This document shows positions 1 to 5,697 of a stretch of 64,000 nucleotides of DNA, piece after piece. Where the stretch lies: positions 620,001 through 684,000 of the forward strand of contig JAWMAR010000552.1 of assembly GCA_036785375.1 (NCBI GenBank), given 5' to 3'. A model generated the notes under the pieces. The model had not been told where the DNA came from, made no database searches, and saw only the letters and a program-made list of their open reading frames with translations. Both the position numbers and the translations under genes were made by a program. Every line of letters starts with the position of its first letter. Within the stretch, counting starts at the first letter, position 1. This DNA comes from Leucoraja ocellata. Its lineage: Eukaryota.

Positions 1-1168
1 TTTTTAGCAGGCCTTTTTTTCCACAAGCCCATCTATGTTTGTAGTTTAAATTAGCATTCTCACTAAACATCATATTATTAAAAATGCAGAGACCTGTGGA
101 GAAAGTAAATGACGGGGAAGCAAATGAGAATTGACAGGATCAGTTAGCTGGAGATAACAGGCAAAAGACAGGAAGTCAGGGAGACAGACAAAGAGAGTGA
201 ATGAAATTAATCTTAATCCTGCTGAGACAACAGATTCCCAGCCAGCCATTACAGCCTGATATTAGCCACGATTACAGGTTAGCTGTTTCTCAATGAATAA
301 AAGTAAGGGGTGGCACAGTGTTCAACCGAGAATTGAGTAAACCCAAGATATGAAATCTGTGTGTCATCTAACTTGGTACCACAATCTTTCACTGGGGCTT
401 ACAACCATTAGAATCAGAAACTTCCGAGTAGATTATATTCTGCACTAATTTTGTCGCTTTGTGAGAGAGACCATCAGGGGAATATTAAATCACATTAATG
501 TTTCGGACAGGAACGGTGCCTGGGTTTTGACCTCAGGAGAGCAGTCTGCTGCAGTGCATCCTGATGGCACCTGTCACCAAAGATCCTAGAGGGACAAGAT
601 AGACCACTCCTCGAAAAACGCGTAGTATGACGTGTGTGACCGTCGACGCCATTTTGTTAAGCATTTTATTGGGCTTCCCCCACACTGTCATGGCGTCCTG
701 GTCTAAATTTCATCTCACTGTTCTGCTATCAAGTATTCTAATCGTAAATCTAAACGACCCAACCTGTCATTCTTTAGGTTCCCCAATAAAAAAGAAAGGT
801 GAGAAAATATTTTTATTATTTTCAGTCGATATTCTGTCGTGAAAATGGTATTTTCTGTTCTCCCATCAACGGCCATTGGGAAACATTAGTCGGTACATTA
901 GAAAGTTATTAGACTTATTTTTAATAGTTCTTTACTCACCACAATAATAAAGACAATTTTAACACTTCTGTACGTTTTTGGTTTTGTTTTGTAAGGGATT
1001 AGTCTGCACAATATGGCCCGCGGACACATTAGGTCCAGTGACCAGGAGATTTTTCGAGTCCGAGAATGGGCGGCTGTTACCCATTATATTCCTCGAACAT
1101 AGGGACATAGCAAACAACACTCACATACATACAAGACATCACAAGCCCGCCGTGAAGAAGGGTGCAAT

Positions 1169-1201
1169 CAAATATTATATAACTCTGCTATATCATCTTT
1201 G
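1169..1201. mobile_element. 33-bp TIR-TIR remnant (putative excision footprint)
   Basis: caaatattatat...atatcatctttg flanked by perfect 8-bp repeat ggtgcaat (1161-1168, 1202-1209). Confidence 0.7.
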
Positions 1202-1244
1202 GGTGCAATGGTGGGTCGGGGGGTTCGGTGGCGGCGGCCGCAAT

Positions 1245-1280
1245 CAAAGATACTAGTGGAGCTCTGCTCTATAATCTTTG
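1245..1280. mobile_element. 36-bp TIR-TIR remnant (putative excision footprint)
   Basis: caaagatactag...ctataatctttg flanked by gccgcaat / gtcggaat (6/8 match). Confidence 0.65.
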
Positions 1281-1320
1281 GTCGGAATGGGACGGCTGCG
1301 CGTTATAATGTGCTATCGTT

Positions 1321-1473
1321 CCACTCTCCCTCTCCCCCTTGTCCCTGTCCCCCTTCTCCCTGCCCCCCCTTTCCCCTTCTCCCTCTCCCCCTTCTCCCTC
1401 TCCCCCCTTCTCCCTCTCTTCTCTCGATCTCTCTCTCCCCTCCTCTCGATCTCTCGCTCCCCTCTCTTCTCTC

Positions 1474-1511
<38 letters not shown>

Positions 1512-1577
1512 CCTCTCTTCGCGATCTCCTTCCCTTCCCTCTCTCCCACCCTTCCATCTCCCCCTCCCTTACCTCTT
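1321..1577. repeat. CT-rich low-complexity tract with (CT)n
   Basis: Near-pure pyrimidine run; source of several spurious ORFs. Confidence 0.95.
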
Positions 1578-1867
1578 CGTGAGAGTTGGCAGCTCTGCTA
1601 TGCCTTGGGTCCAAAAGAGGATAGATAGAAAATACTTAATTGTCTTTGTAAGAAGATTTTAATAAGCTCTTCTACATTTAAGGTAAATTGACATATTAGA
1701 GGCAAAACACATTTTCAATATACAGGTCTCTCCACACAACTGAAAACAATTGCATTTAAGTGATATATCATCCATTGTTCAGGCAAGTAGCACTAGGTTA
1801 CAATAAACTTCCTGCATATTCCAGGAATTCATCTCATAAAAATGAGAGGCTTAAATGCATTGTAAAA

Positions 1868-2090
1868 TCATAAATCCATGTTGACTTGGACTAATGCTTT
1901 TACTGCTATCCAAATGCCCCATTATTACATCTTTAATAATTGACTCCAGCATCTTTCACACCACCAAAGTCAGGCTAACTGGTCTGTAATTCCCCATTTT
2001 CTCTCTCGCTCCTTTCTTGAAAAGTGGGATAGCATTAGCTATCCTCCAATCCACAGGAAGTGATCGTAAATCTATTGATCGTTGGAAAAT
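1868..2090 (-). mobile_element. CR1 LINE ORF2 fragment (RT N-terminal region)
   Basis: Minus-strand translation DWRIANAIPLFKKG...NYRPVSL...SQHGFM is typical of CR1. Confidence 0.85.
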
Positions 2091-2091
2091 A

Positions 2092-2955
2092 ATAGAAACA
2101 TAGAAACATAGAAATTAGGTGCAGGAGTAGGCCATTCGGCCCTTCGAGCCTGCACCGCCATTCAATATGACCATGGCTGATCATCCAACTCAGTATCCCG
2201 TACCTGCCTTCTCTCCATACCCTCTGACCCCCTTAGCCACAAGGGCCACATCTAACTCCCTCTTAAATATAGCCACTGAACTGGCCTCGACTACCCTCTG
2301 TGGCAGAGAGTTCCAGAGATTCACCACCCTCTGTGTGAAAAAGGTTCTTCTCATCTCGGTTTTAAAGGATTTCCCCCTTATCCTTAAGCTGTGACCCCTT
2401 GTCCTGGACTTCCCCAACATCGGGAGCAATCTTCCTGCATCTAGTCTGTCCAACCCCTTAAGAATTTTGTAAGTTTCTATAAGATCCCCTCTCAATCTCC
2501 TAAATTCTAGAGAGTATAAACCAAGTGTATCCAGTCTTTCTTCATAAGACAGTCCTGACATCCCAGGAATCAGTCTGGTGAACCTTCTCTGCACTCCCTC
2601 TATGGCAATAATGTCCTTCCTCAGATTTGGAGACCAAAACTGTACGCAATACTCCAGGTGTGGTCTCACCAAGACCCTGTACAACTGCAGTAGAAACTCC
2701 CTGCTCCTATACTCAAATCCTTTCGCTATGAAAGCTAACATACCATTCGCTTTCTTCACTGCCTGCTGCACCTGCATGCCTACTTTCAATGACTGGTGTA
2801 CCATGACACCCAGGTCTCGCTGCATCTCCCCTTTTCCTAGTCGGCCGCCATTTAGATAATAGTCTGCTTTCCTGTTTTTGCCACCAAAATGGATAACCTC
2901 ACATTTATCCACATTATACTGCATCTGCCAAACATTTGCCCACTCACCCAGCCTG
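2092..2955 (-). mobile_element. CR1 (HER1-like) LINE 3' end, young, 5'-truncated
   Basis: Open 244-aa ORF 2190-2924 (LVRPHLEYCVQFWSP, RRLRGDLIETYKI, RVVNLWNSLP); 3' UTR and (TTCTATGT)n tail. Confidence 0.95.
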
Positions 2956-3411
2956 GGCTATCATTGTGTTACATACGTTAAATTGTACATCACTTTCACT
3001 GGTTAGCTGATATGCTGAACTGCAACCCTGTATAACTCGCGCACAGAATAATGTGAATTGTGTAAATCTTATCCCAACGGGTCCCACTTAGTCTATTGAT
3101 TGTGTATAAGCTGCAAATTTTGTCCTTTGTTTGAAATGTGTAGAATGTGACATCACTTTTATTGATTATCTGATATTCTAAATTCTGCAAATTCTGCAAG
3201 CCTGTATATGTCGTGCACAAAATGATGTAAATAAAAATTGTTTTCCTGTTTAAGAAGTTCAATTGAGAATTATTTGAAATTGTGGGGGTTGATACAAAAT
3301 ACTGTTGACCCACAAATGTGTTGATATGAGACATTCACATTTAAAAAATCCATGTCGCAAAAAAAGCAAGAAGGTGCCCATGTTATTTGACCAACTTGCC
3401 AGATTAATTTA

Positions 3412-3700
3412 AATATACACAATACACAATACAATTTATTTGTCACTTGAACCTCATAGAGGTTGTTGGAGCCCCCGGCGTGCGCTAGAAAAGTGCCGCA
3501 GCCATTTAAGCCACGCCGGGCGATGATGTAAGGCCCCGCTCCAGGTCATCCTCGACCCCCGCTACTCGGGCGGAATAATTTGCCGTTGCGGAAGCCCCGA
3601 AAAGCGGTCTCCCAGCAGGGACCCGCAGGCTCCGATATTACTGTCTGCCAGGCCTGCGGTTGGAGCCTCCGAATCTCCGGGGCTCGGGTCACAGCAGCGC
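3412..3700 (-). mobile_element. GC-rich non-autonomous retroposon fragment, unclassified
   Basis: Minus-strand AAATAAA plus (TATTGTG)n-type tail at 3412-3440 next to a CpG-rich body. Confidence 0.4.
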
Positions 3701-3749
3701 ATGGGTACATATGTAGGTATGTATGCATTAGTTTTGCTCCTAATTCCCT

Positions 3750-4058
3750 TTTCAAAATCATTAATATATATGGTAAACAGTTGCAGCCCCAACACCAAGC
3801 CTTGTGGCAAAAAAATCCAGAAGATTAGTCAAACATGATTTTCCTTTCATAAATCCATGTTGACTTGGACAGATCCTTTTACTGCTATCCAAATGCCCCA
3901 TTATTGCATCTTTAATAATTGACTCCAGCATCTTTCACACCACCAAAGTCGGGCTAACTGGTCTGTAATTTTCCGTTTTCTCTCACGCTCCTTTCTTGAA
4001 AAGTGGGATAGCATTAGCTATCCTCCAATCCACAGGAGCTGATCGTAAATCTATTGAT
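3750..4058 (-). mobile_element. CR1 LINE ORF2 fragments (internally deleted)
   Basis: PQGLVLGLQLFTIYIND motif joined to HGFMKGKSCLTNLLDFF...IPLFKKGA. Confidence 0.85.
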
Positions 4059-4218
4059 NNNNNNNNNNNNNNNNNNNNNNNNNNNNNNNNNNNNNNNNNN
4101 NNNNNNNNNNNNNNNNNNNNNNNNNNNNNNNNNNNNNNNNNNNNNNNNNNNNNNNNNNNNNNNNNNNNNNNNNNNNNNNNNNNNNNNNNNNNNNNNNNNN
4201 NNNNNNNNNNNNNNNNNN
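4059..4218. other. Assembly gap
   Basis: 160 N. Confidence 1.
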
Positions 4219-4578
4219 TATGTGCATTTGTGTATGTGTGTATATATGTGTGTGTATAAATATATATATATATGCATATATTTATTATTACTATATAATT
4301 ATATATATAATTGCCTTTATGGTTTATGTATATCATCTTACAAGACAAATAAATTAATAGTGATGATTTAAATCAAAGTTGCTTCTGATACATGAGAATA
4401 AACTATTATCTCTAACTTGCCTCTCACACACAGACACACATTCATATAAATATATTAAATATATATACGTTAAATTTAATTTTTTGCAGTGTGTGTTAAA
4501 GCAATACAATGCAAGGGAAACTACACAAAGGAGGGGTCTGTTCCCGCTACAAGATACTTGAGGATCTTTGCTTTGGAT

Positions 4579-4609
4579 CAAAGATTATAGCGGAGCTCTA
4601 TAATCTTTG
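4579..4609. mobile_element. 31-bp TIR-TIR remnant (putative excision footprint)
   Basis: Perfect 12-bp inverted ends caaagattatag / ctataatctttg; flanks ctttggat / ctttgaat (7/8 match). Confidence 0.75.
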
Positions 4610-4944
4610 CTTTGAATCACAGCGGGTGGAATACCGGAAGTCGAGTGTCGCTGTAACAAATGGCGGCCGTGACGTTCCGTTGCGTACTACACGTCAGCCC
4701 ATTGAATTTCGAAGGAGTGGTCTATCTTGTCCCTCTAGGATCTTTGCCTGTCACCGCACTGCCTGTGGATGGTGCTAAGAATGTGATTTGGCTGAAGTAG
4801 TTGCGGTATTCCAAGAATACCTTCAGCCTTTTGCACCCATTTACACATTCCTGCATATACTCCATTTGCCAGATCTTTACCTATCCGCATCCCTTTTTAG
4901 CCTCTCGAGGAGTCAGAAATGAACACAACAGCATACCAAATCTG

Positions 4945-5264: not shown

Positions 5265-5697
5265 TGTGTAGGAAAGAACTACAAATGCTGGTTTAAACCA
5301 AAGATAGACACAAAAAGCTGGAGTAACTCATCGGAACTGGCAGCATCGCAGGAGAGAAGGAATGGATGACGTTTCGGGTCGAGACTTCTCTAACTTATTT
5401 AGCTTCTTTAGCTCCCGGCATTCCCTCTCTCTCCATCCCTCCCCAACCCAAGTCACACCAGCTTCTCATTTTCATCCAACGAACAACTAACAATGGCCTG
5501 TTTCCTTTATCATTGTTACTTTTTTGCATATCATTCATTCATTGTTCTTTATCTCTCTACATCATCATCTATATGTCTCGTTTCCCTTTCCCCTGATTAG
5601 TCTGAAGTAGGGTCTTGACCCGAAACGTCACCCATTCCTTCTCTCCAGAGATGCTGTCTGTCCCGCTGAGTTACTCCAGCTTTTTGTGTCTATCTTC
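5265..5697 (+). mobile_element. Penelope 3' end preceded by an inverted pLTR
   Basis: 5265-5388 is the reverse complement of the pLTR at 5600-5697; the middle matches the Penelope 3' UTR seen at 40790-40985. Confidence 0.8.

Follow-up and report, generated by a model that had tools for sequence, protein, structure and literature searches.

The host element and its short units

The window considered here is a stretch of 64,000 nucleotides (nt) from the skate Leucoraja ocellata (assembly GCA_036785375.1, contig JAWMAR010000552.1, positions 620,001 to 684,000, forward strand). The RAG1 protein of this genome shows 99% identity to a skate protein, 87-90% to those of other sharks and rays, and no more than 81% to those of bony vertebrates, in agreement with the cartilaginous fish named in the sequence-only reading. 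Close to its start lies a non-autonomous element of the P superfamily (positions 578-4746), hereafter the host element, which is flanked by a perfect 8-base-pair (bp) target-site duplication (TSD), CCTGTCAC, on the forward strand at 570-577 and 4747-4754. The element carries three short units, each composed of a left end and a right end of P-type terminal inverted repeats (TIRs) that are fused to one another between 8-bp direct repeats. These units are very probably footprints of P-type staggered-cut excision that were repaired by end joining. Their anatomy and their TSDs are seen directly; the excision itself is what we infer from them and from the comparisons across the genome.

The units had been picked out by a sequence-only reading and are present as it described them, with lengths of 33, 36 and 31 bp and with 0, 2 and 1 mismatches between the flanking 8-mers. 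Unit 1 occupies 1169-1201 (1161-1209 with its 8-mers, which are identical), unit 2 occupies 1245-1280 (1237-1288) and unit 3 occupies 4579-4609 (4571-4617). At the site of unit 2, empty relatives hold a single ancestral 8-mer, GTCGGAAT, of which the left copy in the window later mutated at two positions. Judged from their arms, the three units would belong to the 15+20-2, 18+20-2 and 18+15-2 classes (left arm, right arm, less 2), each with later substitutions, unit 1 being the decayed one. The pattern CAAAGAT-N8-36-ATCTTTG has two matches in the window against 0.02 expected, a number reached by 0 of 100 shuffles, and unit 1 is one substitution short of it. A decayed candidate for a fourth scar (4550-4570) adjoins unit 3 and has an 8-mer in common with it, its left TSD being unrecognisable.

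The inverted ends of the host element span about 58 nt and are 81% complementary. The left end (578-635, forward strand) consists of an 18-nt terminal segment followed by an internal AAGAT motif, at which the scars stop, and then by a subterminal repeat; the right end (4689-4746, reverse strand) has the same 18-nt segment and AAGAT motif. A remnant of transposase exon 1, encoding the N-terminal half of a THAP domain, lies at 707-799 (forward strand; 84% identity over 31 amino acids to the autonomous relative L077), so that the host retains part of a TIR-enclosed transposase gene. Units 1 and 2 fall between the two THAP exons, and the exon positions in L077 would place unit 1 within intron 1 of the ancestral transposase gene; this position is a likely reason why autonomous copies tolerate them. 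A fragment of a long interspersed nuclear element (LINE) at 2094-2957 (reverse strand, with a reverse-transcriptase-like frame at 2193-2957) was inserted later and partly accounts for the length of the host copy, 4.2 kb versus 2.2 kb in L034. The region of this insertion is flanked by a 212-bp direct repeat (95%) at 1868-2079 and 3847-4058.

The units were copied along with the host, because the best host copies carry units 1 and 2 (30 of 30, the window copy being one of them) and each copy lies at its own insertion site. The left 750 bp of the host has 2,074 candidate matches in the genome, and the 40 that were scored show 99-100% identity. The flank pattern of unit 1 has 818 genome matches and is filled in 100 of 100 among the matches listed. 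The host has been copied about 800 times, with the units frozen within its lineage.

Relatives with empty sites, which the sequence-only reading had called for, exist for units 1 and 2 as single 8-mers, and for unit 3 only on a weaker alignment. The unfilled-site patterns of units 1 and 2 have 1 and 4 genome matches. Loci L308-L310 hold single 8-mers at both sites, L311-L312 lack unit 2 and hold unit 1 in a 38-bp form, and both units are present in the host lineage; this series indicates, as far as sequence comparison can, that units 1 and 2 were acquired stepwise in ancestors of the host. Unit 3 is apparently missing from two autonomous relatives, in a noisy alignment. The claim that family members had repeatedly inserted into this element and left it thus stands as to scars with empty-site relatives; it fails as to place, since the scars formed in ancestors of the host and became fixed in a young subfamily, not in this copy. 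A further scar, located upstream of unit 1, consists of 5 bp of TIR between two copies of an 8-mer (about 1390-1410 in L311/L312, and at the homologous place in L001 and L090); it is empty in L308-L310 and rearranged in the window copy (about 1127-1147), and it fits a TIR stub joined to the TSD itself.

Empty sites are also found at scars elsewhere in the genome. At the L356 site, 16 of 30 loci match the probe and comprise 7 scarred and 9 empty paralogs. For a young scar at L224, an orthologous empty allele with one 8-mer is present in samples X2 and X10, whose reads skip 39 positions (31 + 8), the site being uncovered in samples X1 and X3. A first automated comparison flagged empty paralogs for 26 of 77 units, several of which were misaligned self-matches, and stricter settings gave an empty paralog for 3 of 42 unselected units, among the loci examined; the clean cases include L043, L085 (with a paralog 98% identical), L133, L175, L188 and L191.

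Unit lengths, joins and the stop point of the arms

Counts were made over the 3.44-Gb assembly, with the reversed pattern as the control. Units of 24-44 bp number 10,389 (1,083 in the control) and units of 14-23 bp number 3,217 (428 in the control). A strict pattern gave 3,310 matches at 28-40 bp, 347 at 41-88 bp and 636 at 89-228 bp, so that the density per bp of length drops about 35-fold above 40 bp, from 255 at 28-40 bp to 7 at 41-88 bp. Among the strict matches listed, most of those at 41-88 bp are templated inserts or scars that are nested or adjacent, and a few are extended on one side only, as expected from partial gap repair; those of 89-228 bp are largely neighbouring scars and scar-plus-end pairs. 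TSDs with at most two mismatches flank 42 of the first 50 matches (unselected), which fall into 36 flank clusters; roughly two thirds are independent. The sharp mode that had been predicted at 30-36 bp thus appears as a sharp ceiling, below which the units take discrete lengths between 12 and 40 bp.

An earlier, loose pattern had shown an excess at 45-74 bp (4,315 versus 1,771). The 50 loci listed for it consist of scars lying beside or within one another, of a 53-bp piece of an unrelated repeat and of chance matches, and the pattern was replaced by the strict ones. The window itself holds an inverted pair, 85 nt long, of a very common short repeat (5301-5385 and 5612-5696), a 53-bp piece of which mimics the CAAAGAT...ATCTTTG pattern without a TSD.

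The full ends of the family (10,024 matches) begin with CAAAGAT, continue with a variable segment that ends in C at position 18, 19 or 20, and then show AAGAT. The AAGAT is exact in 112 of 116 ends that were collected via another anchor, and the segment preceding it varies in length and sequence. The arms of the short units follow this layout: 4,668 reach AGC and then leave the parent sequence, and 139 continue with A. The stop point, seen directly between C and AAGAT, therefore lies 18, 19 or 20 nt into the parent ends, according to subfamily. Long stubs indeed lie between the TSDs, as had been proposed, although the expected stub of about 17 nt is replaced by one of up to 18, 19 or 20 nt. 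Direct joins were found at 61 loci; among the 50 listed, 25 are 36 bp long, 4 are 38 bp, 20 are 40 bp and 1 is 41 bp, the sizes 36, 38 and 40 corresponding to 18+18, 18+20 and 20+20. The junctions as a whole are diverse and include 12-bp units and templated inserts, and the combinations of left and right arms copy the asymmetric ends of long parents.

Two subfamilies, the host-type end and the 19-nt ends, were held out as tests of the stop-point rule, and both followed it. The host-type end lacks the self-complementary GC microhomology; its scars (13 loci at 12 sites) have perfect TSDs in 13 of 13 cases and include 4 exact 18+18 joins, and none of the 13 loci extends past the C. The 19-nt ends gave 42 loci, of which 16 are 37 bp (19+20-2) and 10 are 32 bp (19+15-2), as predicted; none of the 42 runs into AAGAT, and TSDs were found in 18 of the 19 scars fetched. 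An intrastrand hairpin in the overhang was also considered and dropped, since the variants seen among full ends do not covary. The scar-to-element ratio varies strongly by subfamily, with 13 scars against at least 800 host copies for the host-type end and 42 scars for one 19-nt end type, though 19-nt ends are common. These differences may come from age or from excision rate.

Autonomous relatives and reuse of target sites

The partner enzyme is of the P/THAP9 type, as the sequence-only reading had anticipated, and not of the hAT type: autonomous relatives with matching ends encode a THAP domain and a full P transposase. A genome search with the P-type GTP-binding domain (GBD) yielded 145 candidates, of which 129 matched; several of the matches lie in open frames of more than 700 amino acids. 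Whole elements with CAAAGAT ends and a perfect 8-bp TSD were seen in 8 of 20 stretches around such matches, representing 5 independent insertions, and 6 further stretches of the 20 have the host's left end or the host's units. The transposase frames score above cut-off for the Pfam families PF12017, PF21787, PF21788 and PF21789 (helix-turn-helix (HTH), RNaseH-N, GBD and RNaseH-C), and the THAP domain (PF05485) is split across two upstream exons (positions 1-28 and 29-87), the first of which is below cut-off on its own. The Drosophila P transposase 6p5a is the sole match of solved structure (E 2.5e-41), and three acidic residues in the FDEM, CDQG and QDVVE segments align with the catalytic D/D/E triad of the fly enzyme. 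The database homologues that carry a name are mostly labelled as P transposases, as THAP9 or as hypothetical invertebrate proteins. In five frames scanned, no hAT family matched and only P-type families did, the genome not having been searched for hAT enzymes between such ends. The family as a whole comprises about 10,000 full ends and more than 100 copies with transposase domains.

Other P-like sequences accompany these elements. Loci L080-L088 represent a second autonomous subfamily, whose copies share about 98% identity with one another and about 74% amino acid identity with L077; it is marked by a tandem repeat of 96 bp in the coding region and by an internal palindrome of 750 bp. Further P-like transposase frames at L086:3946-6474 and L094:3333-6357 had no CAAAGAT ends that could be found, and in L094 a 37-nt inverted repeat pair surrounds the P-like domain match.

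Over 125 scar sites (a non-random sample), the TSDs follow the motif GTY..RAC, with symmetrised frequencies of 0.53 for G and 0.64 for T at positions 1 and 2. In the part of the published account drawn on here, the Drosophila P target core is given as GTCCGGAC (PMC2577343), and the GT....AC core of the skate TSDs agrees with it. The flanks of the same 125 sites have a mean GC content of 53%, compared with roughly 42% in the window, which suggests a bias to GC-rich, perhaps promoter-like DNA.

Target sites have been used more than once. Scars nested inside scars were observed, L140 and L211 show a scar and a full element at one common 8-mer, an unrelated family member, from another subfamily, inserted again at the 8-mer of unit 3 in two further copies of the host, and one position in a short interspersed nuclear element was targeted by at least four different ends. 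The proposed self-targeting is seen in many single cases, and as case observations only. A separate observation concerns the contig G000:C3127:2001-19000 (L335, L336), where a large inverted duplication contains host copies that end at the 8-mer of unit 3 in a different P-type miniature inverted-repeat transposable element (MITE), with no second TSD; this arrangement resembles a transposase-driven rearrangement.

Proposed excision mechanism, alternative explanations and significance

Published knowledge of P transposition, as contained in the portions of the sources used here, provides the frame for a mechanism. The Drosophila P cut lies 17 nt inside the TIR (PMC7776569), and the donor sites are repaired as direct joins, short-microhomology joins or joins with inserts (PMC2895639); the skate junction classes agree with the repair tables in that portion of PMC2895639. 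In the strand-transfer complex of the fly, the looped-out transferred strand doubles back onto the 5' part of the non-transferred strand and pairs with it; transposition requires this pairing, and bases -14 to -18 are disordered. By the statement of the same source, it is unknown by what mechanism and in what order the P strands are cleaved (PMC7776569).

By this analogy, an element would insert and later be excised by a P-type transposase, whose likely cuts are at the tip of the element on one strand and 18-20 bases further in on the other. The chromosomal overhangs, ending between C and AAGAT, would then be joined directly (36, 38 or 40 bp), through the terminal GC (34, 36, 37 or 38 bp), or through the inner GC or palindromic microhomologies (12-33 bp), or else with small templated inserts. 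Since the arms stop where the motif lies, whatever its distance from the tip, AAGAT is the likely anchor of the cut. This internal motif repeats the sequence of terminal bases 3-7 and would position the inner cut; to do so, it could pair with the tip of the transferred strand, the variable segment of 18-20 nt being looped out as in the Drosophila complex. Such slipped pairing would set the cut and tolerate changes in loop length, the alternative being a read-out of AAGAT by the protein. The host's ancestors would have acquired the scars of the window in succession, two within an intron, and passive amplification would have followed. A broader proposal, to which we give an even chance of being right, is that a large, recently mobile P family of the skate makes its staggered cut without a fixed 17-nt ruler, the inner cut falling at the start of the internal copy of terminal bases 3-7 and probably being placed by slipped pairing between the transferred-strand tip and the new 5' end, with an overhang of 18, 19 or 20 nt, and that scars and their TSDs act as renewed targets, giving rise to nested scar clusters.

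Three other explanations must be weighed against excision at such a cut. If the units were ordinary internal deletions of full elements, arising by aborted gap repair or by microhomology deletion between the inverted ends, then the GC, CTAG and GATC microhomologies would account for many junctions without any special cut, and the minority of arms that continue with AAGAT (13 of 100 among the matches listed), which retain 25-60 nt of one end beyond the stop point, would be natural. Such deletions predict a broad spread of lengths, whereas the density collapses above 40 bp, the C is the exact end point of those direct joins that lack microhomology, in the 18, 20 and mixed types alike, and the host-type end also stops at the C although it lacks the GC; this explanation is already largely refuted, and we consider it very improbable. 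Little more than a token probability likewise attaches to the view that the units are mobile micro-MITEs of 12-40 bp, inserted by the P transposase and marked by TSDs of their own. Under that view, too, TSDs would be perfect, paralogs and orthologs with an empty site would exist, and the same unit would recur at unrelated sites; it also accords with the failure to find a clean full-element allele at a scar site. On the other hand, the units lack AAGAT and all the subterminal sequence that every long element keeps, their junctions are as varied as the 12-bp units and templated inserts show, their arm combinations mirror the asymmetric ends of long parents, and Drosophila P, according to the relevant part of PMC7776569, requires internal binding sites beyond the TIR.

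The remaining explanation accepts footprints and places the inner cut at a fixed distance of more than 20 nt, or at a variable one, with trimming to the GC microhomology producing the apparent stop and AAGAT serving only as a protein-binding site. Repair enzymes do trim overhangs, the 139 arms with one extra A would suit such a cut, and a conserved AAGAT is explained equally well by HTH contact as by strand pairing; however, a fixed distance cannot yield 18+18 and 20+20 direct joins that end at the same base, and the ceiling of 18 in host-type scars occurs without GC. This version is unlikely, if somewhat less so than the two before it.

Excision at a motif-anchored cut remains the favoured account, and several observations weigh against it or against parts of it. 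Unit 1 is 38 bp long in L311/L312 but 33 bp in the host lineage, so that the short classes may partly be later deletions. About a third of the genome matches were carried along passively within other repeats; the count of AAGAT is to some degree circular, many loci having been fetched by that motif in the first place; and no 18/20 parent of the kind required for 18+20 hybrid scars such as unit 2 was present in a set of 14 whole elements. The looping model is drawn from the text of a review (PMC7776569). RNA reads at L083 come from both strands and show no listed splice joints and no scar joints, which gives no verdict on expression, and no RNA sample was listed for the stretch of the window.

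In addition, three aimed searches and two read alignments (L224, L083) failed to turn up any site that is cleanly occupied by a full element in one copy and by a scar in another. No such pair was found at a four-copy duplicated insertion site; the L228 site had one match, L228 itself; the 8-mers of units 1/2 and of unit 3 gave 14 and 8 matches, which proved to be 20 unrelated sites and 2 re-insertions by another subfamily; and the L356 paralogs described above included no full element. The full ends at the unit-3 site likewise belong to another subfamily. The nearest candidate for a filled/scar pair is L197:915-1535, a tandem 47-bp repeat whose first unit holds a full 384-bp element and whose next two units hold identical 32-bp scars at the same 8-mer, with more scars beside. 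The element and the scars have the same left-arm variant. The pair is ambiguous: the shared variant is a CpG-type change that could be recurrent decay, and the right arm can be matched only by allowing one substitution and the loss of 5 nt.

The skate family can be compared with other transposons that make TSDs of this length or leave footprints. hAT elements also make 8-bp TSDs, and their excision leaves hairpin-derived changes in the flanks without TIR sequence, while mariner footprints consist of 2-3 TIR bases; unlike both hAT and Tc1/mariner, the skate partner enzyme is P-type. With Drosophila P, as described in the parts of the sources cited, the skate elements share a THAP-HTH-RNaseH-GBD transposase, the 8-bp TSD and the GT....AC target core (PMC7776569, PMC2577343), as well as long TIR stubs between intact TSDs and joins that are direct, use 1-4-nt microhomology, or contain templated inserts or partial gap repair (PMC2895639). 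They differ in that the stub is 18, 19 or 20 nt long and variable within one family, instead of 17 nt (PMC7776569), and in TIR sequence and outer target flanks. In the same partial accounts, moreover, the Drosophila footprints are laboratory excisions, whereas those of the skate record thousands of events that took place naturally in the germ line of a vertebrate. The zebrafish Pdre2/zfTHAP9 system is likewise a vertebrate P-superfamily element with an 8-bp TSD and internally deleted copies, and zfTHAP9 was shown to excise, in an assay that gave larger donor deletions; Pdre has 13-bp TIRs and at least 50 copies, with no staggered cut mapped in the parts of that source used here (PMC10983969), as against the far larger numbers of ends and transposase copies in the skate. 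No report of P elements or their footprints in cartilaginous fish was found in the literature, the repeat databases Repbase and Dfam, subscription journals and supplements lying outside the search, so that the family may be catalogued there.

P footprints were already known from fly experiments; the skate adds a variable stub of 18-20 nt and a natural record in a vertebrate. The natural series of 18-, 19- and 20-nt stubs that stop at one motif leads to a directly testable prediction of the cut position, and extends the long-staggered P chemistry to a vertebrate. The autonomous relatives supply candidate intact vertebrate P transposases together with their own ends, which are possible tools, and the scars offer, for a cartilaginous fish, thousands of germ-line junctions made by end joining whose starting structure is known.

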